The notes beneath the pieces are model-generated. The model was given only the letters and a program-made list of their open reading frames with translations, did not search any database and had not been told where the DNA came from. Position numbers and translations under genes: made by a program. Below, in pieces: positions 14,956-58,873 of a stretch of DNA of 64,000 nucleotides. Numbering within the stretch: the first letter of the stretch is position 1; every line of letters begins with the position of its first letter. Source of the DNA: an uncultured Ignavibacteriales bacterium. GTDB lineage: Bacteria; Zixibacteria; MSB-5A5; GN15; FEB-12. The stretch covers positions 811,705-875,704 of the forward strand of contig CAZILL010000002.1 in assembly GCA_964540105.1 (NCBI GenBank), written 5' to 3'.

Positions 14956-14981
14956 TGGGTAAGCAGGAAAGGAAATAGATC

Positions 14982-16272: not shown

Positions 16273-16278
16273 AGTTTT

Positions 16279-34393: not shown

Positions 34394-34422
34394 TTGACAA
34401 TTGCGCGGGAACTTATTATTAT
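34394..34422 (+). promoter_or_regulatory. candidate sigma70-type promoter of the PorU/PorV envelope operon
   Basis: TTGACA (34394-34399), a 17-nt spacer, then TATTAT (34417-34422). It sits in the largest (333 nt) and most AT-rich intergenic region of the window, about 85 nt upstream of the 34508 start. Confidence 0.3.
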
Positions 34423-38476: not shown

Positions 38477-38494
38477 TAATTCGTGGAGAACTTG

Positions 38495-41108: not shown

Positions 41109-44100
41109 GTGAGTTGCACACATAGGACGATTGTGCTCACACTGGTCATCGGCCTTGTCGTTGCGATGTCGGCGGAGGCCGAAGACAAAGTATGGGTCGG
41201 TAGACGCAGCGTTACGCCACCAACCGAGGGGCAGAACGATGTCGTTCATCGCTGCCTTACCCCCAGCATAGGGGATGTCAACTCCTCGACCTCTACTCGC
41301 AAGGCTCAATGGTCTCTGCCGGAACAGGCTTTGTCGACGTCATTTGACACTATCATCCGGGTACTTGTCCTGCGTTTCGATTTTCAGTATGAGGAGCAGG
41401 ACGACCCGAACAGTACTGGACGCGGGCGCATGGATCTTTCACGCCCTCTCGCCAATGCGGTCGATTCGGCCAGATATTTTGATACGATCGGGCATTGGAT
41501 CGATCCACCACCACACGATTCCGCTTATTTCAGCTCCCACATGCGCGCGCTCAATCTGTATTGGTTGCAGGTCTCACAGGGGCGATACCACCTGGTGTGG
41601 GACATCTTCCCGAAGCGCAACGACTCGCTCTACACGCTGCCCCACCCGATGAGTTATTACGGTCGTTGTCCGTTCGATTCAGTCGTGGTCGGTCTCGAGG
41701 AGTTTTTCAAGGATTGCATCCATGGTGCGGACTCAAGTCCTGAGATCGACTTCTCGCGCTACCAGGCGATCGTGATCTTCCACGCCGGTTCTGATCGCCA
41801 AAACGACATCGGATTCCCTCAGACCTGCGCTGATCTCTTCACGGGATTCATTAAGTTCAAGGACTCCATCCCGGTCGACGACGGTCGGACTTATATTCGG
41901 AAGGCAGTCATGATGCCTGAGACCGCGTGCCAGGATAATCGCGCCACTGCCCTCAATGCCGTGCTCGCCCATGAATTCGGCCATCAGCTTGGCCTTGTCG
42001 ACCTGTACAACACACGCGGCTTCATGTCTCAGCTGGGGGATTTCTGCCTCATGGATAACAACGGTTTTGGCAGTGGGATCGAATACGAAGGATTTACGGT
42101 CGGCAAGGTGTTTGGAGCGATCCCGGTTTATCCCGATGCTTGGTCGAGAGCCTATCTCGGATTCGACTCGGTTGCTGACTTCCGCCACGGCTCGGACATA
42201 CGGCTGGTGGCGGCCGAGATTGCGTCGCGCGGGCTCAAGATAGCGCGGGTGCCGATCTCCGAAAACGAATACTATCTCATCGAGAATCGGAATATCGACA
42301 CCGACGGCGACACGACGGTCACCCGTGTCGATTCGACCACGAACGTGATCCTCGGACCTGCCAACAAGCGTCGTCAGTTTACCGGAGAATATGACTTTCT
42401 CATGCCGGGCTCGGGGATGTTGATCTATCGCGTGGATGAAGGGGTGGCCGGTCTCGACTACAATGACAATGGCACAAACAACTTCGAGGACAATACCCTT
42501 CAATGGGACCCCAACCGCCGGTTTGTTTCGTTGGTTGAAGCGGACGGCTTTGTGAATTTCGGCGGGTATTATCGCAAGGGGTATGGCGACGTTGGGGATT
42601 GTTTTCGCGATGACCTCGTCACGCGGTTCACCCCCAACACGAATCCTCCGGCGCTCGACAACGGGGGGAACAACACCCATGTCAGCGTGACCGGCATCAC
42701 CCGTGAGCTCTATACCTCACCGGGCAATTCGAAGCCGATTCTTCTCGATAGCGTGATGTTCTTCGACGTCGAAACCGATATGCTGGCCGCGGGCTTCCCG
42801 GTGCGAGCGGGCTACCCGGTCTATCCGTTGTCCTCGATTGTAGATGATCTCGATCGCGACGGCCAACCGGAAGTAATCGCCGCGGCTCGCCGACTGATAA
42901 CCGTTTTCACGACTGCAGGCGAGAACTATCTTCGCAAGCGCACAAATTGCACTACGTGCCCGGAATATGCCGACATTGTCAAGTCAACCATGAGCGCCGG
43001 AACGCCTCGCGTCGTGCCAGCCTTTGCTATTGTCGGGGGAGCGAATGACACAATAACATCAGGTCCGGTCACAGGTGACTTTGCGGAAAAAGGGCTGCTC
43101 AAGTTTGTTGCGGTCGGATATCGCACCGGACCCGCCGCTGGTCGAGTAGTCTTATATGTCCCGACTGACGATAATCGCGACGGGTTGGCAGATCTGGCGA
43201 CAGAAGAGTTCGCAACAGACGGTAAACCAGTAGCCCTGTCGTTCGGGAACATTCTCTATGTGCTCACCGACAAGGGAAAAGTCTATCGACGGGATGGCAT
43301 CCTCGGTGCAACGGTCCTACTGGCGACCATAGACGCGCCCTTATTTCAAGGAATCAGCAGAATCGGCAATCGACTCGTGGTTATGGCCGGGAGCGAGCAA
43401 AACAGCAAACTATTCGTCGTGGGTTCAACACTCGATTCGATTTCCCTCGGTGACAATTTCAGCCTTGGTCCGATCACCGCTGACATGAATCGAGACTCCA
43501 TTCCAGAGGTTGTCTCTTTTACTACCGACGGCGACGGCATCTGTGTAAGCGTCGACACAACGCGCGAGCCGCCGCTGCTTACAGTTCTCGCGCAATCAGC
43601 GAGCGGCTATCACCTGACCGTCAACCCGATTGTGGGCGATGTCGACGATGACGGTCTTCCGGATGCGATCGTAGGTGGGACGAACGCTCTTTACGCTTTC
43701 GACGGCAAACTCGTGCTGAAGAGTAATTTCCCGCTTTCTGTCGATGACCGCTTTCCGTCTTCTGACATTATTGCTTCACCCGTAAGCGCTGACATCTCCC
43801 GGGGCGGCCGCTCTGAGCTGATTTTTCCGAACGATGCCGGCGCAATTCATTCCTATGGCACTTCCTCAGCCGATCTGCCTGCAGCTGTTCAGGTTTACAG
43901 CCGGACGGCCGGCTTCCCGCTCTCAGCAGGCGAGAAAGGGGCAGGCTCGTGCGTTGTATTTGCCGATTCCGCCGGCGGGAAGCTCGGCTACCTGGGCGCC
44001 GATGGATGGTTTTACGCTTGGGAAATAGACCGCGATAGCTCGGCCGACTACTGGCCGATGGGCGGTCACGATCCATCCGGCAGCTTCACTTTTCCTGCGG

Positions 44101-44414
44101 ACAAATTGCACGAACGGAGCGAATACCCGCAGGATTATCTCGGTGGACGGTTCTACAATTATCCAAATCCCGTGACAACGGGATCAACCAATTTTCGATA
44201 CTTCCTGGGGGAGGAGGCTCGACGAGTGACGGTGACTGTGTATGACTTATCTGGTCAGAGGATGGCATCGTTCGATGGGACAAGGGCTGCGGGCGAGAAC
44301 TCTCAGACTTGGAACTGTTCGGACCTGACACCGGGAGTCTATCGATGCCGCCTTGAAGCAACGTTCTCCGGAACCACGAAATCAGTATTCACCGACGTGG
44401 CCATCATCAGATGA
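41109..44414 (+). CDS. M6 (immune-inhibitor-A)-like zinc metalloprotease with FG-GAP/VCBS-like repeats and T9SS C-terminal sorting domain
   Basis: It has a signal peptide and the zinc motif VLAHEFGHQLGLVDLYNT (HEFGH at 41970-41984). FG-GAP-like Ca-binding loops are present (DDLDRDGQPEVI, ADMNRDSIPEVV, GDVDDDGLPDAIVGG). The CTD at 44151-44411 reads FYNYPNPVTTGSTNFRYFL...VTVYDLSGQRM...LTPGVYRCRLEA. Confidence 0.8.
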   Translation: MSCTHRTIVLTLVIGLVVAMSAEAEDKVWVGRRSVTPPTEGQNDVVHRCLTPSIGDVNSSTSTRKAQWSLPEQALSTSFDTIIRVLVLRFDFQYEEQDDPNSTGRGRMDLSRPLANAVDSARYFDTIGHWIDPPPHDSAYFSSHMRALNLYWLQVSQGRYHLVWDIFPKRNDSLYTLPHPMSYYGRCPFDSVVVGLEEFFKDCIHGADSSPEIDFSRYQAIVIFHAGSDRQNDIGFPQTCADLFTGFIKFKDSIPVDDGRTYIRKAVMMPETACQDNRATALNAVLAHEFGHQLGLVDLYNTRGFMSQLGDFCLMDNNGFGSGIEYEGFTVGKVFGAIPVYPDAWSRAYLGFDSVADFRHGSDIRLVAAEIASRGLKIARVPISENEYYLIENRNIDTDGDTTVTRVDSTTNVILGPANKRRQFTGEYDFLMPGSGMLIYRVDEGVAGLDYNDNGTNNFEDNTLQWDPNRRFVSLVEADGFVNFGGYYRKGYGDVGDCFRDDLVTRFTPNTNPPALDNGGNNTHVSVTGITRELYTSPGNSKPILLDSVMFFDVETDMLAAGFPVRAGYPVYPLSSIVDDLDRDGQPEVIAAARRLITVFTTAGENYLRKRTNCTTCPEYADIVKSTMSAGTPRVVPAFAIVGGANDTITSGPVTGDFAEKGLLKFVAVGYRTGPAAGRVVLYVPTDDNRDGLADLATEEFATDGKPVALSFGNILYVLTDKGKVYRRDGILGATVLLATIDAPLFQGISRIGNRLVVMAGSEQNSKLFVVGSTLDSISLGDNFSLGPITADMNRDSIPEVVSFTTDGDGICVSVDTTREPPLLTVLAQSASGYHLTVNPIVGDVDDDGLPDAIVGGTNALYAFDGKLVLKSNFPLSVDDRFPSSDIIASPVSADISRGGRSELIFPNDAGAIHSYGTSSADLPAAVQVYSRTAGFPLSAGEKGAGSCVVFADSAGGKLGYLGADGWFYAWEIDRDSSADYWPMGGHDPSGSFTFPADKLHERSEYPQDYLGGRFYNYPNPVTTGSTNFRYFLGEEARRVTVTVYDLSGQRMASFDGTRAAGENSQTWNCSDLTPGVYRCRLEATFSGTTKSVFTDVAIIR

Positions 44415-45346
44415 GAGGATATCAGATGCGACTTCAGACATGCATGCTTCTTGTGATCTTCGTGTCCTTTGGAACTATTGGGGTTTCCGGCAGGGAACTG
44501 CAGCTAAGTTCGTCTCGCATGTCTCAGGAACTCCTGCAGATGCGCTATCAAGGAGTTCGCATGTTGTCCGAGGAAGAGCCATCGGCGTCAACTCATCAAG
44601 TGGACCAGTCGGAGAGCGTCTCGAATCGATCATCCAAGCAGTGGAAACGCAAGTCCGCCCCGAAAGCGTTCGCCATGTCGTTGGTGATACCCGGCCTCGG
44701 ACAGTTCTACTATGGGAGTCGCGTCAAGGCGGCCCTCTTCTTCGGGGCGGATGTTGCGTTCTGGGCGCTGGCTTCTTCATCGCACAAGAAAGGGAATGAA
44801 CTGACCGACGAGTTCAACGCGTTTAATCGCGCCCACTGGAATCGAGATTCGTACGAACAGAAGTACCTGTTGTGGACCTATGGTTTTGCCGACGACGAAG
44901 AGATCCCGACGGATAAAACCGAAATCAGCCATCATCTTCCGGACACTGAAACACAGCAGTACTTCGAAATGACCGGCAAATACAACCAGTTTGCATGGGG
45001 GTGGGACGACGCCGAATTGAACGGTAAGAAGATAGATGACTACAGCGTGCAGAATCCGCCACTCCGGATTCTGGAACCGGCGTCGACTCCATATTCCCAG
45101 AACCGCCTCACGTATGAAGATATGCGCCACTCCGCGAACAAGAAGTTCGAACAATCTCGAGCCATGATTATGCTGGCAATGGCCAACCGCATCATCAGCA
45201 GCTTCGAGGCGCTCTTCACGGTCAACAGGCACAATCGCGGTCTGGCGCCCGAGCAGCAGTTCAGCAGAGTAGAGGTTCGGGCGTCGCTGAAGTCATACCG
45301 CGCTAAGCGCGACACCCCGTTTCTGAAATTGACATATCGATTCTAA
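44411..45346 (+). CDS. hypothetical envelope protein, PGLGQFY-motif family (DUF5683-like), paralogue 1
   Basis: Its start overlaps the upstream stop (ATGA). It has a signal peptide and the motif KSAPKAFAMSLVIPGLGQFYYGSRVKAALFFGADVAFWA. It is a paralogue of the next gene. Confidence 0.55.
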   Translation: MRGYQMRLQTCMLLVIFVSFGTIGVSGRELQLSSSRMSQELLQMRYQGVRMLSEEEPSASTHQVDQSESVSNRSSKQWKRKSAPKAFAMSLVIPGLGQFYYGSRVKAALFFGADVAFWALASSSHKKGNELTDEFNAFNRAHWNRDSYEQKYLLWTYGFADDEEIPTDKTEISHHLPDTETQQYFEMTGKYNQFAWGWDDAELNGKKIDDYSVQNPPLRILEPASTPYSQNRLTYEDMRHSANKKFEQSRAMIMLAMANRIISSFEALFTVNRHNRGLAPEQQFSRVEVRASLKSYRAKRDTPFLKLTYRF

Positions 45347-45354
45347 GAAAGCGA

Positions 45355-46164
45355 ATGAACTGCACTTCCCTCAAACGCTGGGCGATCATACTGACTGCCA
45401 GTTGCTGCGCCGGATCACTTTACGGACAGGTAAGTTATCCGGCGCTCACCATCCAGGAAGAGTTTCACCAGCGGATGGGAGATCTTAGCCCGCGATTTGC
45501 GGCGCTCTCAGACAGCTCGCGGCGCCCAAGCCAGGCCGTCGGAACAGAGCCCAGCGATGAGGGGACAAGACGCAAGTCTTCCGCAAAGGCGCTTCTGCTC
45601 TCCGCGGTTGTGCCGGGGGCGGGACAGTTCTATCTGGGACAGAGAAGCCGCGCTCGTTTCTTCTTCGCCGGTGAAGCGCTCTCATGGATTGGCTATGCGT
45701 CGTTTCGGCTGTTTGGCCACTGGCGCGAGGAAGACATGATCCGATTTGCCCGCCAGCGCGCGGGAGCAGATTTGAATGGGAAATCCGAACGGTTTCAGGA
45801 CATCGTCGGCTTCTATTGGGACATAGACCAGTACAATTCACTGGGGCGTGCTTATGACCCACAACGCGCATATCTTCCAGACACGCCGGAAAATCACTGG
45901 CGATGGCAGGATCCGGCCGATCAGGTATCGTATCGGCTGCTGAAGAATCGCAGCCGGGGAGCGTTCGATCGAGCCCGACTCATGATCGGCGTTATGGTCG
46001 TCAACCGCGCTCTCAGCGTTATTGACACCTATCGCGAGCTGCGTCATCGAAATTCCCGCAAGGGGCTTTCATCGTCGCTGACCGATCTGGGTAATTATTC
46101 GCTCGATTTCGATCCGTTTGGCCGGAATGATCAGGTGACCCTCACGTGGCGTGCACCGTTCTGA
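45355..46164 (+). CDS. hypothetical envelope protein, PGAGQFY-motif family (DUF5683-like), paralogue 2
   Basis: KSSAKALLLSAVVPGAGQFYLGQRSRARFFFAGEALSWI. The C-terminal FDRARLMIGVMVVNRALSVID matches FEQSRAMIMLAMANRIISSFE in paralogue 1. Confidence 0.55.
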   Translation: MNCTSLKRWAIILTASCCAGSLYGQVSYPALTIQEEFHQRMGDLSPRFAALSDSSRRPSQAVGTEPSDEGTRRKSSAKALLLSAVVPGAGQFYLGQRSRARFFFAGEALSWIGYASFRLFGHWREEDMIRFARQRAGADLNGKSERFQDIVGFYWDIDQYNSLGRAYDPQRAYLPDTPENHWRWQDPADQVSYRLLKNRSRGAFDRARLMIGVMVVNRALSVIDTYRELRHRNSRKGLSSSLTDLGNYSLDFDPFGRNDQVTLTWRAPF

Positions 46165-46166
46165 TC

Positions 46167-47135
46167 ATGCGGCGATCCCCTTTCCCGGCGACGCTCGCCT
46201 TGCTGGCATTGCTTACTCAGTCCTGCACCAAGCCGCCGTCGAAAATAGATCACACCACAGCGCTCACGGTGCGACGACCTGCCGAACTACTTGTAAAGCA
46301 AGTCATCTCCGGCCCTATCCTTGGCATGCAGATGAAGAACCCTTCGGGGCTCGCCGCCGATGATCAAGGTGCACTCTACGTTTGCGACGCGGGCAACAAT
46401 CGAATACTCAAGTTCGGCAGCGATCTGACGCCGGTCAGGGAGTCAGGTGGTTTCGGGAGTGAACCCGGGCTGTTCGGCCAGCCGCGCTTTGTAACAGTCG
46501 ACAACCGCTTGAACCTATGGGTCACCGATCCGGGAAGTCGGCGCGTTGTTCGTCTTGACGCAAACCTCAAGTACGTCGACGAAGTGAACTTGCATGATGA
46601 ACAGGATGCTCTGAAGTACGGCGCTCCCACCGGCGTCGCGTCGTCCATCTACGGCGTCTTGTGGATAGCGGATCGAGAGAAGAGTCGCGTTGCTACGTTT
46701 GATAACGTCGGCCGTTTTGACCGATTTGTTGGCGACTTCGGTTATAGCGGAGGACAGCTTCTCCACCCCGAGAAGATCATCACGGGCCCCGACGACGAGT
46801 ATGTCGTGTGCGATGCCGGCAACCGCAGGATCGTTTTCTACGACAGCTACGGAAACTTCACGAGGACCCTGGAAAATCCCCGATTCGAGTTTCCCGTTGC
46901 CGTCACCGATGATCGCGCCGGGAACCTCTGGATTCTCGATCAGAAGCTCGGTATCCTGAGTCTCTACGATCAGCAAAGACGCTTCGTGCTGGAGCGAGGC
47001 CCGCAATTGAACGGCAACTCGACCGCTCTTCGTGCTCCTTCCGATATTGCAGTGATGTCCGACGGACGGATAGTCATCGCTGATAGTGGCAACAACCGTC
47101 TCGTCGTATGTGAAACAATCTCTGCTGCTCCGTAA
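46167..47135 (+). CDS. NHL-repeat beta-propeller lipoprotein
   Basis: The lipoprotein signal is MRRSPFPATLALLALLTQSC. At least five NHL repeats are present: LYVCDAGNNRILKF, LWVTDPGSRRVVRL, LWIADREKSRVATF, YVVCDAGNRRIVFYD and IVIADSGNNRLVVC. I prefer the ATG at 46167 over the GTG at 46146. Confidence 0.8.
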   Translation: MRRSPFPATLALLALLTQSCTKPPSKIDHTTALTVRRPAELLVKQVISGPILGMQMKNPSGLAADDQGALYVCDAGNNRILKFGSDLTPVRESGGFGSEPGLFGQPRFVTVDNRLNLWVTDPGSRRVVRLDANLKYVDEVNLHDEQDALKYGAPTGVASSIYGVLWIADREKSRVATFDNVGRFDRFVGDFGYSGGQLLHPEKIITGPDDEYVVCDAGNRRIVFYDSYGNFTRTLENPRFEFPVAVTDDRAGNLWILDQKLGILSLYDQQRRFVLERGPQLNGNSTALRAPSDIAVMSDGRIVIADSGNNRLVVCETISAAP

Positions 47136-47147: not shown

Positions 47148-50100
47148 ATGGACAGGGGCTGGTTCGCACAGGCGTGCAGGATTGCGGCGTGCGGCTGCCT
47201 TTTCACCCAGATGGCCATTGCCCGGACCGACACTCTGCTGGTAGGTTCGGCGATTCCCTCCCGGTTCTTGATTCCAGCCAGTCGCATCTTTTCTAATTCG
47301 GACACATTATACATGAACGGGCGGCTCCTCGCTCGTGGCACGGAGTACCGGTTGGGCGCGGGTGAGAACCTGTTCGAACTTGCTCAGATTCAACGCACCC
47401 CCAACGACACCCTGCGGATCATCTATCATGAATGGCCGAACTGGATGCTCAAATCGTTTGGTCGGCCAATACCTGAAGCGACTGATCGACCCACGGTCGT
47501 CCCACAAGAACCCACGATCGCCAGAAGCGCTAATCCCGGTCTCTTCGGCGAAGGGGTCAGGATCGATGGAGCCAAGTCGTTTCGTTTTTCCACGCGTACT
47601 TCGGGGAACGCTGAATTCGGCCAATCCCTTGATCTTCGCCTTAGCGGTGAACTGTCACCCGGGTTCGAACTCACCGGTGCAATTTCTGATCGGGGCTACA
47701 ACCCCAGCTACGGCACCTCCAATAGCCGACTTAGTGAGCTCGACAAAGTCAATCTCCAGTTGAAATCATCACACCTACAGGCACGTGTCGGTGATATCGA
47801 CATGGCTGCTTCTCAGAAGTCGGGGAATAAGCAGGCCTCAGGCTTCTCGATTGCGCTTTCGTATCCGCAATGGCAGGCGCACGGCGCTATCGCCCGACCC
47901 AGAGGCAGATTTCAAACCATCTCATTTCCAGGGCTCGATGGCTTTCAGGGACCGTATCAGATCGCTTCCGGGTCCAAGATTACTCCTGTTGTTCCGAATT
48001 CCGAAACGGTCTGGCTTGACGGTCAGAAGCTGGAGCGAGGGATCGAAAAGGACTATTCAATCGATTACCCGGCAGGTCGAATAACCTTGAGCAGCCGCCA
48101 TCCGATTGACCGCAGAAGTCGCTTCGAGGTCGACTTTGAGCCACAGTTAGACGCGTATCGCATGGAAATGGCCGAAGTAGGCGGCGCGGTTCAAGCGAAG
48201 GACTCCCTATTCGCGTTCTCTGTGGATGCAACGCGTGAGGGGGATAATCGGAACCAGTCGATCGGAATCGGGTTGTCTGAAACCGACAGACAGATTCTCG
48301 AGAACAGCGCCGACAGCGCTGCTTCGCGCTCCGGCGTCGTTCAGGACACGGCAGGCGATTACGAACTGGAGACTGAGCTTCTTCCAGACTCAGTCTTTCG
48401 CTACGTTGGTCCGTCGAATGGCACCTATCGGATAACCTTCACGTACGTAGGCATTGGTCGCGGTTCGTATCATTTCTTTGGAGCCGGGAACTATCAGTTC
48501 GCCGGGCGGGATTCCGGGGACTACCTGCCGATTGTCATCCTCACCAAGCCTGAGCGACTCGATTCGTATCGTGCTCGTGCGAGTTTTCGCCCGAGCGACT
48601 TGGGGAGATTCACAGTTGACTATCGCCAGACGGAATTCGACGATAATCTGTTCTCAAGTCAACCGCGCACGCGGCAGACCGGTCGAGCGTACCTGGCTTC
48701 GTATGCGAGACAGTGGCAATCTGGGGAGCAGATCAACTCGATCAGCCTCAGTCGCCGTTATCGTCAACCAACGTTCCGATCTCGGGAGCGCTTCTCGCCG
48801 GTCGACCTCGTTCGGGATTTCCTCGTCCCGACTTCCGATAGTACTACCTCTTCTACCGAAACATGGCAGGAATTCAAGGGTGAGTTCCATCTGATTCGTG
48901 CACTGGCAATCACCCCATCGTATTCCACGTTATCCTACGGCCGGGGCTTTTCATCGCGAGCAGGCAGCGTTGGGATCGTATTGAGACCGCTGTCACACTT
49001 CACGTCGAATCTGTCATGGCGGGCCGTTGCGGCTCACCGCTCTACCGATTCCGCCTCACTGCCGGGAGAAGCGAACAGCTACGCGGCGACCGTCGCCTAT
49101 CGGTTCAGTCAAGACCATTCCATCGAAATAGGGGCAGAGCTCGATTCACGGGAACACTATTACTCTGGCCTGCCAAAAGGGACGCGGTTTGTGCGTTCTT
49201 TCGCGAATCTTACTGTTGGCCACGAGCGTTTGCGCTACGAGTACTACCGTGAGGACAGCCTTTCGACCACTTGGTTTACTGACCTTCGGAGGCAGCGCAT
49301 CACCTCGCGCTCGGAGCGGGCGCTGGGAAACCTCCGATATCAGATTGACGCTTCATACCAATGGTTGCAGCTATTGAGTAGTCGGCAGGGGAGTTTCCTG
49401 GCGCGCTCCAACCTGACCTATTCGAATCCGCAGAAGAACTTTGCAGCGAATGCCGCGATCTCACTGTCCGATGAACTGAGAAGTGAGCGCGGAATCAGCT
49501 ATCTGGAGGTGCCCTCAGGACGCGGGAACTACATTCTCGACAACGGGCGGTATGTACCCGATCCTGACGGCAACTTCGTTCAGGTCGAGGAGATTCTGTC
49601 GGCTCAATCTCGCGTGCGTCGCGCAGAGAAGAACTTCCAATTCAGCAAGGACTGGCGCGACGTCTCCATGCACTTCACCTCTGAGGTCAAAGAGGAACTG
49701 CTACCGGCCGGTACGCGACCCTGGATCTGGGCGCTGCCGTTCTATTCGGACGAATCCGAGGCGTATTTGTACCTTTCGAGACGATATGCCGGCGACCTTC
49801 ACCTGTTTGGCTGGAGCACATTTCACTTCGTGAACCTCGAGGCCTCAGAGGAACTCGAGAAACGTCGCCTCGGATCTCAAACTGCGCAACGTCGAGACCA
49901 GAAACTGCAACTCATGTTCAAAGAGGCTCTGGGGAGGCTGTATTGCGATCAGGCCCTTGATCTGTATCACTCGCGGCGCGATGCTTACTTCAGCAGCGGC
50001 GGCGACATCAGCGGTTACAAAGTTCGTACGGGAGTCAAACGGACGCTCGACGTCGGAGAGTACGGAGCCAGCCTGAGTTATCGAAGGGCAGCATCCAGCC

Positions 50101-50396
50101 ATGACGAACAGTCGCGCATTCTGTCAATCATCACCGACATACGTAGTCGACTGAGGCAGCGGGGGGAACTACGCATATCGGTCGAACTCTTTCGTCAGAT
50201 TCTCGATCGGGTTACAGAGTATCCTTCCTATCAACTCACCGATAACCACTTTGGTCAACGGGGAGCAAACTGGTCTTTAGCGCTCAATTACCGAATGAGG
50301 GAAGGGATGCGCCTCAACATCACACTTTCCGGTCGCTCCGCAGACGACCGCGCTGCGCGGATTACTGCCCGAGGTGAGTTTGTTACGGAGTTTTGA
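47148..50396 (+). CDS. large hypothetical outer-membrane protein (putative beta-barrel)
   Basis: 1082 aa with a signal-like N-terminus. It has long stretches of alternating polar and hydrophobic residues rich in Tyr/Arg/Ser/Gly, and a C-terminal aromatic beta-signal-like end ARGEFVTEF. No family is recognised. Confidence 0.6.
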   Translation: MDRGWFAQACRIAACGCLFTQMAIARTDTLLVGSAIPSRFLIPASRIFSNSDTLYMNGRLLARGTEYRLGAGENLFELAQIQRTPNDTLRIIYHEWPNWMLKSFGRPIPEATDRPTVVPQEPTIARSANPGLFGEGVRIDGAKSFRFSTRTSGNAEFGQSLDLRLSGELSPGFELTGAISDRGYNPSYGTSNSRLSELDKVNLQLKSSHLQARVGDIDMAASQKSGNKQASGFSIALSYPQWQAHGAIARPRGRFQTISFPGLDGFQGPYQIASGSKITPVVPNSETVWLDGQKLERGIEKDYSIDYPAGRITLSSRHPIDRRSRFEVDFEPQLDAYRMEMAEVGGAVQAKDSLFAFSVDATREGDNRNQSIGIGLSETDRQILENSADSAASRSGVVQDTAGDYELETELLPDSVFRYVGPSNGTYRITFTYVGIGRGSYHFFGAGNYQFAGRDSGDYLPIVILTKPERLDSYRARASFRPSDLGRFTVDYRQTEFDDNLFSSQPRTRQTGRAYLASYARQWQSGEQINSISLSRRYRQPTFRSRERFSPVDLVRDFLVPTSDSTTSSTETWQEFKGEFHLIRALAITPSYSTLSYGRGFSSRAGSVGIVLRPLSHFTSNLSWRAVAAHRSTDSASLPGEANSYAATVAYRFSQDHSIEIGAELDSREHYYSGLPKGTRFVRSFANLTVGHERLRYEYYREDSLSTTWFTDLRRQRITSRSERALGNLRYQIDASYQWLQLLSSRQGSFLARSNLTYSNPQKNFAANAAISLSDELRSERGISYLEVPSGRGNYILDNGRYVPDPDGNFVQVEEILSAQSRVRRAEKNFQFSKDWRDVSMHFTSEVKEELLPAGTRPWIWALPFYSDESEAYLYLSRRYAGDLHLFGWSTFHFVNLEASEELEKRRLGSQTAQRRDQKLQLMFKEALGRLYCDQALDLYHSRRDAYFSSGGDISGYKVRTGVKRTLDVGEYGASLSYRRAASSHDEQSRILSIITDIRSRLRQRGELRISVELFRQILDRVTEYPSYQLTDNHFGQRGANWSLALNYRMREGMRLNITLSGRSADDRAARITARGEFVTEF

Positions 50397-50399
50397 GTC

Positions 50400-52043
50400 A
50401 TGAAGTCAGTCTTCTGGGCAGCATCTGCAGTACTATTGAGCGTCTGTCAAGTGCACTCATCCACAATTCACTTCACTGGCACGCCGCCTGTTGAAAAGCA
50501 GGCGCTATTGAGAAGTAGTGATCGGCTGCTCAGAAGCAGCGTACCACGCACGGTGGCGCTGGATTCGATCGCATTCTGGCTGATTGAGCTTGGCTATCTC
50601 GAAGCCACTGCAAGACAATCGGGAGACTCGATCCTTGTTTCGGCCGGGCCTCTTTATAGGCTTGAGACGGTTCGTGTCAGTCATGATTCTACGATGGCAT
50701 TTCATCCAAGAACAGCTTTCTCGAAGTTGGCCCTCGAGGCGGCTGCCGACTCGCTGCTCTCCCGTTACCAAGTCGACGGTCACTACTATGCTCGCGCTTC
50801 GATAGACTCAACGACGCGCGCCGGCAACGATCTCTCAATCTCGGCGAAGATCAATCCCGGGCCGGTCGTGACGATCAGAAAGAGAATCTACAACGGGCTC
50901 AGGTACAGCCGCCCGGGACTGGTCGACCGCTTCCTGCGAAACGACTTCGGCGAGTTGCTCACCCAAACGGCAATTGAACGAGTAGAGCGGGACGCTTCTG
51001 CGATACCCTTTCTGGAAGCGATCTTGCCGGTTACGGTTGAGCCTTGCCCCGGATACACACAAGCCGACTTGGTCTTTACCTTTGCAGAGAAGCGCCAGTT
51101 CCGCTTCTTTGGTGGCGCTGGCTATCTGCCCGACAATTCAACCGGTCTGGTCTGGAACGTCGATCTTACGCTGCAGAATCTCTTTGGAGATGGAAGACAG
51201 CTCTCGCTTCGTTCGGAGAGGCGAGAATTGGGAAAGAACACGCTGTCGATCAGTTATGTTCAACCTTCATTCTTGCTGGGAATCGGTGAACTCCGGGCTG
51301 AAGTCTCCACGCGCGATTATCGCAATCAATTTTACGAGTTCGCAATGTCTGCTGAGCAGACCACTCGCTTGGCTGATCATCTGGACGTAGGCGTCGGGAT
51401 TGGCTGGAAGCGTGTTGAGCCTGCTCAGCGGGAGATCGGCTACAATCGTGTAACGGCGGAGGTCACAGGCAGCCGCTCATCGTTTGGACTGGTCCAGAAT
51501 CCCGTAAGCGGGGTAGCCCTTTCCTGGAGTGTCGCCTATGCCCATCGCAGCTATCGACCCGACAGTTCGTTTTTCTCCACCCAGAGCACATCGTTTAGTG
51601 AAACACGAACATCCGCCAGCTTCGACTGGTATCATTGCCTGGCCGGACCGATTGTTTCGCGCCTGCGTGCCCGCTATCAAGGCCTTGAGACGTCGGAAAG
51701 TACGCCACCCCTCTCCGAGCTCTATCTTGTGGGCGGGGCACTCACTCTCCGTGGCTTTCGCAATGATCAGTTCGCCGCCCAGCGAACCGTCCTCGCAACA
51801 GTGGAACCTCGGGTGAGGTTCCACTCGTCATACCTCTTTCTCTTTTGCGATGCGGCGTATATCAACCGACCGTCAAGCGGGTCAATCGAAGGGTCGACGG
51901 TCAAGGAGCTCTTCCGCAACGGCTATGGGGTCGGGTTTGCCATCGTCGACAGAGCGAGCTTTCTCCGCCTTTCGCTCGGATGGAATCCTGAGGTAGCGCT
52001 CTCCGAGCCGAGGCTGTTACTTGAGTTCTCCGCTGGATTATAG
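50400..52043 (+). CDS. Omp85/BamA-family (bacterial surface antigen D15) outer-membrane protein
   Basis: 547 aa with a signal peptide and POTRA-like N-terminal modules. The barrel carries the family motif LYLVGGALTLRGFRNDQF. It starts 3 nt after the upstream stop. Confidence 0.75.
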   Translation: MKSVFWAASAVLLSVCQVHSSTIHFTGTPPVEKQALLRSSDRLLRSSVPRTVALDSIAFWLIELGYLEATARQSGDSILVSAGPLYRLETVRVSHDSTMAFHPRTAFSKLALEAAADSLLSRYQVDGHYYARASIDSTTRAGNDLSISAKINPGPVVTIRKRIYNGLRYSRPGLVDRFLRNDFGELLTQTAIERVERDASAIPFLEAILPVTVEPCPGYTQADLVFTFAEKRQFRFFGGAGYLPDNSTGLVWNVDLTLQNLFGDGRQLSLRSERRELGKNTLSISYVQPSFLLGIGELRAEVSTRDYRNQFYEFAMSAEQTTRLADHLDVGVGIGWKRVEPAQREIGYNRVTAEVTGSRSSFGLVQNPVSGVALSWSVAYAHRSYRPDSSFFSTQSTSFSETRTSASFDWYHCLAGPIVSRLRARYQGLETSESTPPLSELYLVGGALTLRGFRNDQFAAQRTVLATVEPRVRFHSSYLFLFCDAAYINRPSSGSIEGSTVKELFRNGYGVGFAIVDRASFLRLSLGWNPEVALSEPRLLLEFSAGL

Positions 52044-52051: not shown

Positions 52052-52930
52052 TTGGCTCTCGTGTCGAGCTACTCTCCGCGCGTGTCGAAGCTCTCTGCAA
52101 TCGCCCGACTTGTTCGCCTCCCAAATTGTCTGATCGCTGCTGCCGGAGTTCTTGTCGGGGCTCACATGGCGGGAGGAATTCGATCAATGTCAGCAATGGC
52201 GCTTTCAGCCCTTGCCGCATCCCTCGTATGTGGAGCGGGGAATATTTCCAACGACATTCTCGATCTACGTATCGATGGCATCAATCGCCCAGACCGTGTT
52301 CTTGTCAGAGGGCTGCTCACGGTCCCATTCGCTCGACGGCTGGCCTTTACCTGCAATCTCCTTGCACTCCTTGTCGCCGGATTTGTCGGCGTGGCGGCGA
52401 CGGGTTTCGTCGCCGGAGCGATTGTTCTCTTGATGGTCTATAATCACTATCTGAAGAAAGTCATGCTGGTTGGCAATATCGCCGTTGCCGCTCTCGGGGC
52501 TTTGATCTTCATAACCGGCGCGGCAGTTGCAGGGAAGGGCTCTCTGCTGCAACTTCCCGGTCCGCTCATTGCATCAGTCTTCGCTTTCCTGATGAATTTG
52601 GCCAGGGAGCTGCTCAAAGATATCGAGGACGTTGAGGGGGATAGAGCGGAAGGAGTCGTTACGCTGCCGCAAGTTCTTGGCGCTACCCGTACGCAGGCTC
52701 TTGCTTGCCTAATCTGGCTCTTCTTGGTGAGTGTCACGTTTGTTCCGATCATTAAACACTGGTACGGAAGCTTCTACTCGGTCGCGGTTGTTCTTCTTTT
52801 CGATTTGCCGCTCTCCGCCATAATGTTGTGGATGATGTTCAGTCGCACGAAGCGATCAGTGGGCGTTGCTTCAGCGTCGCTAAAGATGGCAATGCCAGCC
52901 GGCATCATCATTCTCTTCTTAGCCCGATAG
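52052..52930 (+). CDS. UbiA-superfamily prenyltransferase, DGGGP-synthase-like
   Basis: 292 aa with ~8 TM helices. It has the N-terminal RLPNCLIAAAGVLVGA. The first Asp-rich motif is NISNDILDLRIDGINRPDRVL (NDxxDxxxD plus INRPDR). The second motif is LLKDIEDVEGDRAEGVVTLPQVLG. Confidence 0.8.
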   Translation: MALVSSYSPRVSKLSAIARLVRLPNCLIAAAGVLVGAHMAGGIRSMSAMALSALAASLVCGAGNISNDILDLRIDGINRPDRVLVRGLLTVPFARRLAFTCNLLALLVAGFVGVAATGFVAGAIVLLMVYNHYLKKVMLVGNIAVAALGALIFITGAAVAGKGSLLQLPGPLIASVFAFLMNLARELLKDIEDVEGDRAEGVVTLPQVLGATRTQALACLIWLFLVSVTFVPIIKHWYGSFYSVAVVLLFDLPLSAIMLWMMFSRTKRSVGVASASLKMAMPAGIIILFLAR

Positions 52931-53060: not shown

Positions 53061-53951
53061 ATGGGTCGAATCCGGGCATGTGGAAGTCTGTTTTGGAGCC
53101 TGAGTTTGGGCGCGTTGCTTGCAGTTTCTTCCACTGCCGGCGAGATCAGCGTTTCTCAGGCGCTTGAGCGAACCGAAATCCCCTATAATTCGACAACAAC
53201 TTTGACTATCACGATCTCCTGGCGGGGAGCGCAATCGGCTTATCGCTTTGATCGCCCTCTCCAGCCGCAGCTCGACAAGCTCAAAGTGCGCGAGTTTTCT
53301 TCTACGATCAGCTCCGTTGGCGCCGTTCAGGAGGAGATTACCACCAAGAAGTTTCGATACACACTTATTCCTACGGGTTCTGGTCAGGGGCGGATTGAGC
53401 CGATCACAATCGCGTATGCATCCTGGCCTGACTCTGTTCCGGGGGAGCTTGTTACCGAGGGAATGTGGGTCACTATCGGACTCCCTCCGCCAGTTGAAAA
53501 GAGAGTTGGCTGGAGGGAGCGGCTGACCCTTCCCGTTATCGCTGTCCTTGGTCTTCTGGTCACGGCGGGAACGGGCGCAGTCTTCTATGTCAGGGCGCGT
53601 AACAAGAAACCTCGTGAGACTGTAAAGTCCCCAGCTGAGTTGTTCCTCGAGCAATTAACTGCGGCAAAGGGAGAATCGGGAGGCGACCTGAAGCGTTTCC
53701 AGACCCTTCTCTATCGCAACTTATTGTGGTATGTTCGTGTACAACACGGGGTAGAGCTTTCCGGCCTGACGATGGAGGAGATTCTACGAGTTGTTGATTC
53801 CAGCTCGATGCCGGATCAGCAGAAGGACAGAATATGCGGATGGTTGCTTCGTGCTGATCGGGAAAAATTCAGTCCTGCGACGCCGGCCCCGGGTGAGACC
53901 ATTCGACTGGAAGCAGAAGTTCGCCAGTTTTTTGAGACATTAACAGCATAG
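53061..53951 (+). CDS. BatD-N-like ectodomain / TM / DUF4381-like tail protein (paralogue of 56771-57805)
   Basis: It has a signal peptide, a beta-rich ~130-aa ectodomain, a single TM helix (LTLPVIAVLGLLVTAGTGAVFYV) and a cytoplasmic helical tail containing LTMEEILRVV and LLRADREKFSP. Confidence 0.55.
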   Translation: MGRIRACGSLFWSLSLGALLAVSSTAGEISVSQALERTEIPYNSTTTLTITISWRGAQSAYRFDRPLQPQLDKLKVREFSSTISSVGAVQEEITTKKFRYTLIPTGSGQGRIEPITIAYASWPDSVPGELVTEGMWVTIGLPPPVEKRVGWRERLTLPVIAVLGLLVTAGTGAVFYVRARNKKPRETVKSPAELFLEQLTAAKGESGGDLKRFQTLLYRNLLWYVRVQHGVELSGLTMEEILRVVDSSSMPDQQKDRICGWLLRADREKFSPATPAPGETIRLEAEVRQFFETLTA

Positions 53952-53969
53952 CGATAGAGCGGAGGTGCC

Positions 53970-54959
53970 ATGCACACTGACATTCAGCAAATTCAATCAC
54001 TTGTAGAGAAAGAATCCTCTTTTGTGGATCGACTCACCGGCCAGATCAGTTCGGTCATAGTCGGACAGAAATATCTGATCGAACGGTTACTCGTTGGGGT
54101 CCTCTCCAATGGGCATATCCTGATCGAAGGGGTACCTGGACTGGCGAAAACGCTATCGGTGAAGACGCTTGCCGATGCCATTCAAGTAAAGTTTCGCCGT
54201 CTGCAGTTCACCCCTGACCTGCTGCCAGCCGACCTGATCGGAACCATGATCTACAACCCGCAGAAGGCGGAGTTTACGGTTCGCAAAGGGCCGATTTTCG
54301 CCAATATCATTTTGGCCGATGAAATCAACCGTGCCCCTGCCAAAGTGCAGTCAGCGTTGCTCGAAGCCATGCAGGAGCGTCAGGTTACGATTGGAGAAAA
54401 CTCCTTCAAGCTAGACGAACCGTTCCTCGTTCTTGCGACCCAGAATCCTATCGAACAGGAAGGAACCTACCCGCTTCCCGAAGCCCAGATCGACCGCTTC
54501 ATGCTGATGCTCAAAATCACCTATCCCAAACCGGCGGAAGAGCGCGAGATCATGGATCGCAACACGGCGGTCGGCGTTGCGGATGTGGCCCGTGTCATCG
54601 CTCCTGATGACATTCTCAGGGCACGCACCGTCGTTCGCTCTGTTTACGTTGACGAAAAGATCAAGGACTACATCATCAACGTCATCTTTGCTACCCGCGA
54701 ACCGGCAAAGTACGGTCTCGGGGATCTCGCCAGTCTGATTGCCTTTGGCGCGTCGCCGCGGGCAACGATATACCTCAATCTGGCCGCCAAGGCGCACGCC
54801 TTCATGAAGGGGCGGGGTTATGTAACCCCGGAAGACATCAAGGCTATTGGTGCCGACGTTCTGCGACACCGTGTACTTCTGACCTACGAAGCCGAAGCGG
54901 AAGAAGTCACCTCGGACGACATTGTCAAACGTGTTTTCGATGCCATTGAAGTGCCGTAA
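53970..54959 (+). CDS. moxR: MoxR-family AAA+ ATPase
   Basis: It has ILIEGVPGLAKTLSVKTLA (Walker A), ILADEINRAPAKVQSALLEAMQERQVT (Walker B / sensor region), LVLATQNPIEQEGTYPLPEAQIDRF and ASPRATIYL. Confidence 0.92.
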   Translation: MHTDIQQIQSLVEKESSFVDRLTGQISSVIVGQKYLIERLLVGVLSNGHILIEGVPGLAKTLSVKTLADAIQVKFRRLQFTPDLLPADLIGTMIYNPQKAEFTVRKGPIFANIILADEINRAPAKVQSALLEAMQERQVTIGENSFKLDEPFLVLATQNPIEQEGTYPLPEAQIDRFMLMLKITYPKPAEEREIMDRNTAVGVADVARVIAPDDILRARTVVRSVYVDEKIKDYIINVIFATREPAKYGLGDLASLIAFGASPRATIYLNLAAKAHAFMKGRGYVTPEDIKAIGADVLRHRVLLTYEAEAEEVTSDDIVKRVFDAIEVP

Positions 54960-54968
54960 GTCGACGCT

Positions 54969-55844
54969 ATGATCCCTCGCGAGATTCTAAAGAAAGTCCG
55001 CCGTATCGAAATCTCGACCAAACGGCTGGTCAACAATCTCTTCTCCGGAGAGTATCACTCAACCTTCAAGGGACAGGGGATGGAATTCGAGGAGGTTCGT
55101 CTCTATCAACCCGGTGATGAAATTCGCCTCATCGACTGGAATGTTACGGCTCGTACGGGAGTTCCCTATATCAAGAAATTCTGCGAAGAGAGAGAACTTA
55201 CCGTTGTCCTTCTATTTGACGCTTCGTCGTCGGGGCGATTCGGAACCCGCGGACGCTTCAAGAATGACACTGCCGCCGAGTTGTGCGCCCTGCTGGCCTT
55301 TTCCGCCATCAAGAATAATGATAAGGTCGGGTTGATCATCTTTACCGACCAGATCGAAAAATTTGTTCCACCCAAGAAGGGACGCGCCCATGTACTCCGC
55401 CTGATTCGCGAAATCCTCTATTTTCAGCCGAAGGGAACTCGCACCGACATAACCGGCGCGTTGGAGTACTTCAATCGGGTGATCAAGCGTAAGTCGGTTG
55501 TGTTTCTCATCTCGGATTTCCTTTCCGAGGGTTTCTATAAACCCCTTCAGATCGCCAACAACAAGCACGACGTCATTGCCGTCAAGGTGAGTGACCCGCG
55601 CGAGACCGGTTTCGACGACCTGGGGCTCATTGAGCTTGAAGACACTGAGACCGGTGAAGTGCTCCTTGTGGATACCGGGTCCAAGGAATTTCGCAACGAG
55701 TTTTCAGCTCGGGCACGGGAGGATTTCTCAGCCCTGCGTCGAGGGTTCCAACTGATCAATCTGGATTTCATCAACATTCGCACCGATCAGTCATACATCG
55801 TGCCGTTGATCAACTTTTTCAAGATGCGAGAGAGGAGGCACTGA
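54969..55844 (+). CDS. DUF58 domain protein (MoxR-associated, VWA-like)
   Basis: GEYHSTFKGQGMEFEEVRLYQPGDEIRLIDWNVTARTG is the DUF58 signature. It is followed by a degenerate VWA-like fold (VVLLFDASSSGRFG). Confidence 0.9.
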   Translation: MIPREILKKVRRIEISTKRLVNNLFSGEYHSTFKGQGMEFEEVRLYQPGDEIRLIDWNVTARTGVPYIKKFCEERELTVVLLFDASSSGRFGTRGRFKNDTAAELCALLAFSAIKNNDKVGLIIFTDQIEKFVPPKKGRAHVLRLIREILYFQPKGTRTDITGALEYFNRVIKRKSVVFLISDFLSEGFYKPLQIANNKHDVIAVKVSDPRETGFDDLGLIELEDTETGEVLLVDTGSKEFRNEFSARAREDFSALRRGFQLINLDFINIRTDQSYIVPLINFFKMRERRH

Positions 55845-56755
55845 TGAGAGGGAAGTTTCTGGAAAGGCTCCTGACATTTGTCATCGTTATGGCCACGTTC
55901 GTCGCGTTACTTTCATGTGCTGAGAAGAAAGCAGGAGTATCGATCGAGCTGCGCAAGAAGCTGGCCGGAGATCTCCGCGACAACAAGCTCTACGGAGCGG
56001 CGATAGAGGAATACTTGCAGGTGTTGTCGGGTGACGAACTCGATAATGTCCAGCGCGGTACCTTGAGCTATCTGATCGCTCGGATCTACTTCGATGATCT
56101 CAAGGACTATGCAAACGCTGCGGCCTACTATGTGCGCGCACGCGGATACGATGCCAACGGCTCATACAACAATGAAGCCATGCAAAATCTGGTCGCTTGC
56201 CTCGAAAAGATGGGACAGTATGTCGATGCCCGGCGCGAGCTTGGGGCTGCCACCGACATCAAGGCTGAAGCGAAGCAGAGCGGCGATGTAGAAGTGGCCC
56301 GCATCGGCGGCACACCTATCTGGAAATCCGAGGTTGAAAGCCAGATACAAACCCTGCCACCCAACATGCAAAAAGAATTCGTGACACCTGAAGGGAAACG
56401 GAACTTCGTTCGGCAATATGTCGGCTCGGAACTCATGTATCGCGCCGCCCTGCGTGAAGGGTACGATCGCGATCAGGAAGTTATGCGCAAGAGAGAGCTG
56501 CTCGCGAAGAATCTTGTCGTGAATAAGTACGTTATCGAGAAAGTCATGCCCGAGGTGAAGATCGACACCCAGGATGTTCGCAATTTCTACGTCGCCAACA
56601 AAGATGCCCGATACAAGAATGCCCCGTATGACTCCGTCAAGGCTCAGGTGTTTCTCGACTATCAGGCTGAGAAGGCACAGGCGGCATTCGGGATCTATAT
56701 CGATAAGCTGGCTCGGAGTGAGCAGGTCGAGTTTCTCGACCAGAACATCAGGTAG
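55844..56755 (+). CDS. lipoprotein with TPR-like N-terminus and SurA-N/PpiD-like chaperone domain (no parvulin domain)
   Basis: The lipobox is ALLSC, followed by TPR-like helices. The SurA-N-like pattern is VARIGGTPIWKSEVESQIQTLPP...FVRQYVGSELMYRAALREG...NFYVANKDARY. Its start overlaps the DUF58 stop. Confidence 0.6.
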   Translation: MRGKFLERLLTFVIVMATFVALLSCAEKKAGVSIELRKKLAGDLRDNKLYGAAIEEYLQVLSGDELDNVQRGTLSYLIARIYFDDLKDYANAAAYYVRARGYDANGSYNNEAMQNLVACLEKMGQYVDARRELGAATDIKAEAKQSGDVEVARIGGTPIWKSEVESQIQTLPPNMQKEFVTPEGKRNFVRQYVGSELMYRAALREGYDRDQEVMRKRELLAKNLVVNKYVIEKVMPEVKIDTQDVRNFYVANKDARYKNAPYDSVKAQVFLDYQAEKAQAAFGIYIDKLARSEQVEFLDQNIR

Positions 56756-56770
56756 ATAATCGCAGGTTCC

Positions 56771-58848: not shown

Positions 58849-58873
58849 AGAAGCGGCGGAGGAGATTACCGTA

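Follow-up and report, generated by a model that had tools for sequence, protein, structure and literature searches.

An uncultured bacterium placed by the GTDB in the phylum Zixibacteria, which belongs to the FCB (Fibrobacteres-Chlorobi-Bacteroidetes) group, carries two adjacent genes that are the subject of this analysis: one for a 1082-aa protein and one for a 547-aa protein of the Omp85 family. They lie on contig CAZILL010000002.1 of assembly GCA_964540105.1, in a 64,000-nt stretch (positions 811,705 to 875,704 of the forward strand) that we call the window and by whose coordinates all features are given. The larger protein is predicted to form a single giant outer-membrane beta-barrel, and it is likely a remote relative, at half the size, of SprA, the T9SS (type IX secretion system) translocon.

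47148 to 50396, + strand: gene for a predicted giant outer-membrane beta-barrel, likely a remote half-size relative of SprA (ATG start, 1082 aa)
50400 to 52043, + strand: gene for an Omp85-family protein (ATG start, 547 aa)

Only 3 nt separate the two genes (stop codon TGA, then gtc, then ATG), and within the 3' end of the barrel gene a GGAG precedes the Omp85 start by 9 nt. Re-reading the DNA reproduced exactly the positions, gap and protein lengths given in an earlier reading made from the letters alone (hereafter the sequence-only reading). An initial homology search returned, among the matches listed, ~120 full-length homologues of the 1082-aa protein (~1,080 aa, 32-45% identity), and 146 relatives occur in species-representative genomes; both genes are therefore real and not chance open reading frames (ORFs). 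The named homologues from the first search were nearly all from Zixibacteria, and every one was annotated as hypothetical.

The family extends well beyond this phylum. A profile search of 1.84 billion representatives recovered 3,942 clusters at E <=1e-3 and 2,147 at E <=1e-30 (family counts of about 2,100-3,900 thus refer to clusters at 50% identity), with many full-length members of 1,100-1,190 aa. A search with the most distant class alone returned at least 2,344 proteins, whose named members came from Ignavibacteriae, unclassified 'Bacteroidota' metagenome-assembled genomes and candidate division KSB1 and had neither a Pfam domain nor a name. No Pfam or NCBIfam family model fits the family, and in the PDB neither of the family profiles searched, A1 and A3, had a significant match (best E ~1, to the unrelated EVH1 and TRPM4). 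Our literature search found no publication joining Zixibacteria with the T9SS or type IX secretion, and none on a short SprA-like barrel. With no Pfam or NCBIfam model, solved structure or publication found for it, this is a large uncharacterised FCB family. The sequence-only reading had been unable to assign the 1082-aa protein to any family, and the searches bear this out: the protein has no Pfam match, its NCBIfam match is a sub-threshold, local one to SprA, and nowhere in Pfam, NCBIfam or the PDB profile searches did a well-known family match it over its full length.

Predicted fold of the 1082-aa protein

The protein is rich in Ser (11.2%), Arg (10.5%), Gly (7.8%) and Tyr (4.6%), and many of its predicted strands alternate hydrophobic and polar residues, in agreement with the Tyr/Arg/Ser/Gly-rich alternating segments described in the sequence-only reading. 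Two other features picked out there, a signal-like N-terminus and an aromatic last residue, are conserved. Orthologs share the n-h-c pattern of a signal peptide, with a cleavage region of the type A-x-A|R-T, and the terminal Phe of ...ARGEFVTEF is kept in 72 of 74 orthologs. The elements of the protein are as follows.

47148 to 47222, + strand: signal peptide, aa 1-25 (helix 3-18 in the model; pattern conserved in orthologs)
47223 to 47432, + strand: N-terminal small beta-sandwich domain, aa 26-95, first SprA-type copy (AlphaFold2; hhalign against SprA ~662-743, score 49.4, P 3.4e-4)
47556 to 47687, + strand: first hairpin of the barrel, aa 137-180, aligning with that of SprA (~158-190; hhalign sub-alignment P 0.0019)
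47688 to 47744, + strand: the family's most conserved loop, aa 181-199 (invariant or near-invariant D181, R182, G189, S193, R194, E197 and D199)
47901 to 48155, + strand: inserted beta-sandwich domain 1, aa 252-336, in a predicted extracellular loop (the stretch matching positions 589-654 of the SprA model TIGR04189)
48261 to 48554, + strand: inserted domain 2, aa 372-469, in the next predicted extracellular loop (conserved G403, Y405, F431, G439, Y441, G457, Y459 and P461)
50349 to 50393, + strand: last barrel strand with the terminal Phe (beta-signal-like R.TGRGE.V..F)

We modelled two family members with AlphaFold2 (AF2), the window protein from a 54-sequence Zixibacteria alignment (model 1) and an Ignavibacteria-type member, P0316, from a different alignment of 65 sequences (model 2). 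Model 1 reached a mean pLDDT (predicted local distance difference test score) of 84.6 and a pTM (predicted template-modelling score) of 0.69, model 2 reached 84.5 and 0.72, and most strands had a pLDDT above 90. Both models have the same architecture with 38 long antiparallel strands, a count that falls to 36 without the short 173-180/200-206 hairpin and was read from the DSSP strings and confidence values of the predicted structures. In model 1 the signal peptide is followed by the beta-domain at aa 26-95, a disordered linker and then long beta-hairpins that succeed one another without a break from aa 137 to the C-terminus. All even-to-odd turns in both models are 2-6 residues long, and the long loops and both inserted domains all fall at odd-to-even positions; in the models, this parity is the canonical topology of outer-membrane proteins with periplasmic termini. 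The 1082-aa gene is thus predicted to encode a Sec-exported outer-membrane protein folded as a single giant beta-barrel of ~38 strands (36-38), a barrel as large as that of SprA built, according to the models, from less than half the chain length. The sequence-only reading had entertained a novel giant barrel, and two AF2 models now predict one with good confidence; modelling also gave a giant membrane barrel where that reading had allowed that the protein might turn out to be a soluble repeat protein. Neither model places the conserved loop at aa 181-199 with a pLDDT of 50 or more; in the Ignavibacteria/KSB1 class this loop has the motif TPIQPEG.TQTL.E.DK, and it may have a function of its own or bind a partner.

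Searching known structures with Foldseek returned membrane barrels exclusively among the best 50 matches per model. For model 1, SprA had the highest query TM-score (template-modelling score; 0.24) and the longest alignment; for model 2, SprA chains took ranks 1-3 (E 4e-11 to 4e-10), again with the highest query TM-score. These TM-scores are low (0.24-0.27) and the ranking may partly mirror barrel size, so the fold search alone is no proof of homology. The low scores to all barrels, together with the derivation of the strand count from DSSP strings and confidence values, also leave room for a model artefact, in which the protein would be some other beta-rich outer-membrane or surface protein, such as two smaller barrels or an open sheet, particularly as AF2 mis-folds some very large barrels (bioRxiv 10.64898/2026.03.07.710327). 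We consider this very improbable: two independent alignments gave the same strand count and loop parity at a pTM of ~0.7 with most strands confidently placed, and an embedded 22-strand barrel would score far above the target TM-score of 0.31 observed to BtuB-type proteins.

Relation to SprA

SprA, with 36 strands, is described as the largest known single-chain barrel (PMC7463736; bioRxiv 10.64898/2026.03.07.710327), and we took TIGR04189, PF14349 and PDB entries 6H3I, 6H3J, 8GL6 and 8GL8 as references for SprA/Sov. By these references the family lies outside SprA: its members score below the TIGR04189 cutoff, lack PF14349 and are half the length. The window protein itself reaches 19.4 bits against TIGR04189, through aa 270-333 only, where the cutoff is 200 bits and a full-length match is expected. 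The sub-threshold signal recurs across the family. Nineteen of 41 members match TIGR04189 at E <=0.01, the best with a whole-protein E of 1e-11, and in each of them the match is to a single domain of ~60 residues at model positions ~589-669.

A 60-aa SprA query gave only 'SprA' fragments of 42-103 aa because frameshifts break sprA in the contigs; SprA was recovered from frameshifted contigs and then by a metagenome scan. Public long-read metagenome contigs (L084-L086) have sprA split into many small called genes in this way. We recovered 69 long SprA ORFs, most of ~2,300-2,450 aa, and used as a comparison set 63 intact SprA sequences rebuilt from metagenome loci and selected at 2,250-2,600 aa. 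The diversity of this alignment is low (effective number of sequences, Neff, ~2.3), which limits the sensitivity of hhalign. Searching the family hidden Markov model (HMM) directly against SprA translations brought up the small-domain motif alone.

In hhalign, both beta-sandwich copies of the family aligned to SprA ~660-780, with scores of 49.4 and 42.4, compared with a best score of 27.6 in a control set of reversed SprA and 10 windowed column shuffles and best single control scores of 33.0 (family alignment A3) and 30.8 (A5) in runs of 25 shuffles. The best collinear chain of alignments scored 131.5, against a mean of 37 (sd 15.6, maximum 66) for 25 shuffles; with a second family alignment the chain scored 109.6, against a shuffle mean of 45 and maximum of 94. 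Specificity was assessed by searching HMMs of SprA segments against 2,075 ORFs of >=150 aa from non-SprA loci, among them PorV, Omp85 and TonB-type barrels. The family, 4.2% of this database, supplied 36 of the 40 top matches to the SprA mid-domain HMM and 11 of the 40 to the N-segment HMM, compared with 1, 2 and 4 for three control SprA segments; family members are not mutually independent, and there are thus fewer independent observations than these counts suggest. Among the top 100 matches to the N-segment HMM, 22 of the 26 family matches fell in one register, pairing SprA ~158-190 with family ~152-186, so that the first hairpin sits at a near-equal distance from the N-terminus in SprA and in the family.

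We conclude that the family and SprA likely share a remote ancestor. For the beta-sandwich domain this is demonstrated, for the first hairpin it is probable, and for the rest of the barrel it is undemonstrated. The comparison with SprA made in the sequence-only reading was therefore apt, given the remote but specific link in sequence and the place of SprA as top fold match of the second model. We place no weight on a candidate similarity in the C-terminal barrel: its hhalign score of 33.9 lies above the reversed and 10-shuffle controls but barely exceeds the best single hit of the 25-shuffle run (33.0), and the enrichment test failed to reproduce it.

Several results weigh against kinship over the whole protein. 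The best family member scanned singly reached 35.2 bits against the TIGR04189 cutoff of 200, and through one domain; PF14349 (SprA_N) was found in neither the window protein nor any of the 41 family members; and at 1082 aa, with inserted domains of only ~85 and 98 aa, there is no large cap. Of the SprA segments, the C-segment HMM drew only 3 family matches in its top 40, no enrichment over controls, and most of the significant SprA signal falls in the small beta-sandwich domain. Nine of the 41 members also match DUF2460, a phage distal-tail-protein family, through this domain, so the SprA-matching beta-sandwich could be a mobile module. The weak DUF2460 and phage-tail matches stem from that small domain and do not speak for a phage origin.

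Conserved neighbours and partner proteins

Upstream of the barrel gene lies a string of genes on the same strand that begins with the T9SS sortase gene porU.

34394 to 34422, + strand: promoter-like site TTGACA-17-TATTAT (11 of 12 positions), just upstream of porU, a possible operon start
34508 to 38476, + strand: PorU, T9SS sortase, 1322 aa (NF033707, 673 bits, cutoff 420), first gene of the conserved string
38483 to 41086, + strand: unusually long PorV-family outer-membrane protein, 867 aa (NF033709 PorV/PorQ, 241 bits, cutoff 90; Pfam PorV)
41109 to 44414, + strand: M6-like metalloprotease with a type-A T9SS C-terminal sorting domain (CTD), likely cargo (TIGR04183, 31.4 bits, cutoff 23; M6 domain)
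44411 to 46164, + strand: two DUF5683 paralogs, 311 and 269 aa (Pfam PF18935; collinear in Zixibacteria)
46146 to 47135, + strand: NHL-repeat six-bladed beta-propeller (Pfam NHL, 94 bits), first member of a conserved triad

A scan of the region for promoters and terminators gave nothing informative apart from the site before porU, which is weak evidence because such sites are no more frequent in the region than expected by chance. In Pfam and NCBIfam scans of the window proteins, the 64-kb window encoded neither a second Omp85 protein nor SprA.

To examine gene order, we compared every protein of the window by tblastn with 80 loci taken from species-representative genomes. In Zixibacteria, nearly every locus with enough flanking sequence has the order PorU-PorV-M6-DUF5683-DUF5683-NHL-barrel-Omp85-UbiA-BatD-MoxR...BatA-BatB on a single strand. 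Among the Zixibacteria assemblies with the locus, CP070756.1, CP070777.1, CP070824.1, CP070674.1, OY760907.1 and OY969724.1 are complete or nearly so. The distance from barrel to Omp85 gene is mostly -32 to +9 nt across 68 loci (modes -14, -1 and +7), and the gap between the NHL and barrel genes is mostly 2-35 nt. In KSB1 the NHL-barrel-Omp85 triad recurs with orthologous partners; one KSB1 locus has no porU or porV within 10 kb, and in the other, porV and a TonB-dependent-receptor-like gene lie ~7 kb upstream of the triad. Ignavibacteria-like contigs carry the barrel gene without these partners, and the genes that come after it are either ogt and uvrD or murJ and lspA; on one Zixibacteria-like contig (L017) it likewise stands alone. 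The barrel and Omp85 genes had been singled out as a pair in the sequence-only reading. Their tight coupling holds phylum-wide in Zixibacteria, and the unit is better described as a triad because the upstream NHL gene is equally conserved. The link drawn there to the PorU/PorV pathway is immediate in Zixibacteria, where the genes share one conserved string with CTD cargo; that immediacy does not carry over to KSB1, where porV is ~7 kb away or absent within 10 kb, or to the Ignavibacteria-type gene, which stands alone without Omp85.

The NHL protein is a canonical six-bladed propeller (E 3e-39 to NHL propellers in the PDB). In the Zixibacteria orthologs inspected, a conserved Cys follows the hydrophobic segment, a lipoprotein signature. 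The PDB comparison revealed no similarity to SprA Plug or to any other solved T9SS component, and we rejected the NHL protein as a homologue of these.

The Omp85 protein has a signal peptide, ~3 POTRA-length units (aa ~21-255) and a 16-strand-type Omp85 barrel (aa ~260-547). It matches PF01103 with 43.1 bits (cutoff 24) and carries the loop-6 motif that marks the superfamily, (V/I/L)RG(F/Y) as defined in PMC12611786, bearing out the D15-type motif reported by the sequence-only reading.

51720 to 51773, + strand: Omp85 loop-6 motif LYLVGGALTLRGFRNDQF, aa 441-458, which holds LRGF, the (V/I/L)RG(F/Y) signature

Both hallmarks of the Omp85 superfamily are thus present. Against the BamA model TIGR03303 the protein scores 61.6 bits (cutoff 297), aligning to model positions 262-650 (POTRA4 to barrel), and its N-terminal region of ~235 aa fits ~3 POTRA domains and not five; a KSB1 ortholog also has POTRA matches. 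BamA was the sole relative in the PDB (E 3e-5). Given the POTRA count and the low BamA score, the 547-aa protein is unlikely to be the housekeeping BamA, and we infer a divergent Omp85 protein of TamA size. A TamL-type lipoprotein Omp85 was ruled out, the orthologs having a plain signal peptide and no conserved Cys.

These partners raise the possibility that the Omp85 protein, and not the giant barrel, is the centre of the system. Like the machineries known as BAM (beta-barrel assembly machinery) and TAM (translocation and assembly module), it could insert many substrates, with the NHL protein in a BamB-like role and the giant barrel as an accessory or scaffold comparable to BamG. BamB is indeed a beta-propeller lipoprotein, as the NHL protein is in Zixibacteria by its signature, the F. 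johnsoniae BAM has a transmembrane barrel subunit and surface lipoproteins (PMC12611786), and the three genes are tightly spaced and conserved in two phyla. We nonetheless regard such an arrangement as improbable, since the Omp85 protein has ~3 POTRA units and falls far below the BamA cutoff, a scaffold has no evident need of 38 strands, and the barrel family is far more widespread than its pairing with Omp85.

The pairings cited in the sequence-only reading, two-partner secretion (TPS), in which a TpsB-like Omp85 protein exports a TpsA-like exoprotein, and TAM, in which a TamB-like protein partners a TamA-like one, draw on the length of the Omp85 protein (547 aa, TpsB/TamA-like) and on its large neighbour. 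Domain and fold evidence shows that these analogies do not fit the partner protein. No TPS, ShlB/POTRA_2 or DUF490/TamB matches were found; the predicted topology is a closed barrel of hairpins with short periplasmic turns and a C-terminal Phe, and not a beta-helix or beta-taco; the fold matches were membrane barrels throughout; and gene order is reversed relative to tamA-tamB. A pair of either type is extremely improbable here.

Other genes around the triad were observed in passing. The 867-aa PorV-family protein, ~2x the normal PorV length, matches the start of the PorV2 model with aa 19-71 and the rest of the PorV barrel with aa 603-865, and this split match points to an insertion of ~530 aa after the first PorV strand; a weak LysM match lies at aa 383-437. 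The M6-like protein has its best NCBIfam match, at 230 bits where the cutoff is 600, in the 'T9SS-dependent M6-like inactivated metalloprotease', yet its HEFGH zinc motif at aa 288 is intact, so by its sequence it may be an active protease. Both DUF5683 paralogs, whose place after the CTD protease and before the NHL gene is conserved in Zixibacteria, have a signal peptide and an aromatic last residue (...TYRF and ...RAPF). In nearly all Zixibacteria loci the gene next after that for Omp85 encodes a UbiA-family prenyltransferase (52052 to 52930). The enzyme is most similar, at a sub-cutoff 175 bits, to models of archaeal-type (di)geranylgeranylglyceryl-phosphate synthase and recalls the archaeal-like lipid genes reported in FCB bacteria. 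Next comes a Bat/MoxR 'aerotolerance'-type operon (53061 to 63214) encoding a BatD-like protein, a MoxR AAA ATPase, a DUF58-like protein (Pfam DUF58 matched the ortholog on contig L083), BatA, BatB, a second BatD and a TPR protein.

Further upstream in the window are a gene for a DUF4388 protein (6469 to 7671) and a type IV pilus cluster (10405 to 17991) with a Ras/Arf-like small GTPase, PilB-like and PilT-like ATPases, PilC (T2SSF) and a PilS-like histidine kinase. A 586-aa PpiC-type rotamase resembling the periplasmic chaperones SurA and PpiD (18061 to 19821) is encoded ~27 kb upstream of the barrel gene, outside the conserved block, and is possibly relevant to the biogenesis of outer-membrane proteins. 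In KSB1, effector genes of a type III-A CRISPR system (Cas10/Csm1, Csm2, RAMPs and Csm4; 15683 to 21830 of contig L170) cluster ~4 kb downstream of the triad, probably by coincidence.

Possible function and comparison with known systems

Tentatively, we infer that the giant barrel may be a minimal SprA-like channel for CTD proteins, with the TamA-like Omp85 protein as its dedicated assembly partner. The barrel would act as a gated protein-conducting channel of the outer membrane, through which CTD-tagged proteins would pass on their way to PorV and the sortase PorU. In SprA, which CTD proteins require for their secretion, PorV binds a lateral opening in alternation with a periplasmic Plug; what points to PorV here is the closeness of a PorV-family gene in Zixibacteria and in one KSB1 locus. 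With only short loops, the barrel would need something to close its very wide lumen, either its small domains or a partner protein, and the NHL propeller, a putative lipoprotein in Zixibacteria, is the obvious candidate for a plug, lid or assembly cofactor, by analogy with LptE for LptD and Plug for SprA; the plug role is pure inference. The co-translated Omp85 protein would most simply be a dedicated folding and insertion factor for so outsize a barrel, or could stay bound to it. A bolder version of this proposal, which we consider rather doubtful, sees in the NHL-barrel-Omp85 triad a minimal type IX-like translocon that is complete in itself and has no motor, in which a half-size SprA homologue, folded by its own TamA-like Omp85 and gated by the NHL protein, would export CTD proteins to PorV and PorU in FCB phyla without PorKLMN, and which would represent the ancestral or stripped-down form behind the 2,400-aa SprA of Bacteroidota.

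Part of the genomic context is at odds with a secretory role. The largest subfamily, of the Ignavibacteria type, has no Omp85, NHL or porU/porV gene adjacent. Melioribacter and Ignavibacterium are reported to have SprA, PorV and Plug and no other T9SS protein (PMC11705866), so the Ignavibacteria barrel is not a mere replacement for SprA, and in this class the family probably coexists with canonical SprA. No clear lipobox was found in the two KSB1 NHL orthologs examined. Finally, the shared gene order of Zixibacteria runs on into the Bat/MoxR operon, so that long-range synteny alone is no proof of a functional link; gene order here is unusually frozen and needs cautious reading.

The same observations would suit a giant barrel that is not secretory at all, such as a wide diffusion or uptake channel or a structural protein, which would share only a mobile beta-sandwich with SprA and owe its place near porU and porV to frozen gene order. 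Such a protein would account for the solitary genes beside ogt/uvrD or murJ/lspA and on L017, for collinearity that also spans the unrelated UbiA and Bat/MoxR genes, for the weak DUF2460 matches of the shared domain and for its occurrence in Ignavibacteria that reportedly have SprA already. It would leave unaccounted for the first barrel hairpin, which matches SprA specifically and at an equivalent position, a predicted strand number that equals or slightly exceeds that of SprA and is otherwise unique, and the recurrence of porV near the triad in a second phylum. Furthermore, an ungated 38-strand pore would be lethal, and a regulated translocon thus fits better than a porin. On balance we judge a non-secretory barrel fairly unlikely.

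A minimal SprA-like channel would bear on the distribution of type IX secretion. The literature describes the T9SS as restricted to Bacteroidota (PMC7463736; bioRxiv 10.64898/2026.03.07.710327). Other FCB phyla nevertheless have PorU, PorV and CTD-tagged proteins, as in the window, and the family described here is a candidate translocon for carrying such cargo across the outer membrane in these lineages. What is new is a drastically shortened SprA-like barrel with new partners, which could be called 'mini-SprA'. It would offer a minimal model of a barrel of 36-38 predicted strands, far easier than SprA to express and solve, and a handle on the evolutionary origin of SprA. Since a presumably dedicated Omp85 protein is encoded beside the barrel by a tightly spaced or overlapping gene, it would also be a natural test case for the assembly of giant barrels. 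The family merits a database model and a name even if its function proves different.

Among known systems, the Bacteroidota BAM with BamG, BamH and BamM (PMC12611786) is an FCB precedent for joining Omp85 with an extra transmembrane barrel and lipoproteins. It differs in that BamG is a 14-strand FadL-type barrel and its BamA has five POTRA domains, and there is no sequence kinship to the proteins described here. As in TpsB/TpsA systems, a short-POTRA Omp85 gene adjoins a gene for a protein of >1000 aa; unlike TpsA, that protein is a predicted membrane barrel with a beta-signal and no TPS domain, and the Omp85 is of BamA/TamA type and not of ShlB type.

The resemblance to LptD-LptE and to SprA-Plug lies in a large barrel, wide enough to need sealing, whose gene adjoins one for a lipoprotein or periplasmic protein that might fill or close the lumen. 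Unlike LptD, the barrel has no OstA/LptD domain in Pfam or NCBIfam, LptD chains being generic barrel matches in Foldseek, and unlike LptE the NHL protein shows no LptE similarity. The 547-aa partner shares with TamA and BamA an Omp85 barrel, the loop-6 LRGF and ~3 POTRA-length units, and it has a very large neighbour and the size of TamA, which is 577 aa long in E. coli. It differs from the TAM in that TamB/DUF490 is found neither in the 1082-aa protein nor in the neighbouring genes and its partner is a predicted barrel encoded upstream, and from the TamL of Bacteroidota in not being a lipoprotein.

Set against SprA itself, the family is much shorter (1082 aa compared with ~2,300-2,500 aa), with most of the extracellular cap and other inserts missing; its NHL propeller and Omp85 partners are not known for SprA; and it occurs in lineages said to be without the PorKLMN motor. 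In common with SprA it has small beta-sandwich domains repeated between barrel strands, with the motif G..L..G.DY.(I/V)(D/N)Y..G.I, and a similar first hairpin near residues 155-190, and it is associated in Zixibacteria with porV/porU and CTD cargo. SprA is a giant single-chain barrel of 36 strands, and for the family one of 36-38 is predicted.

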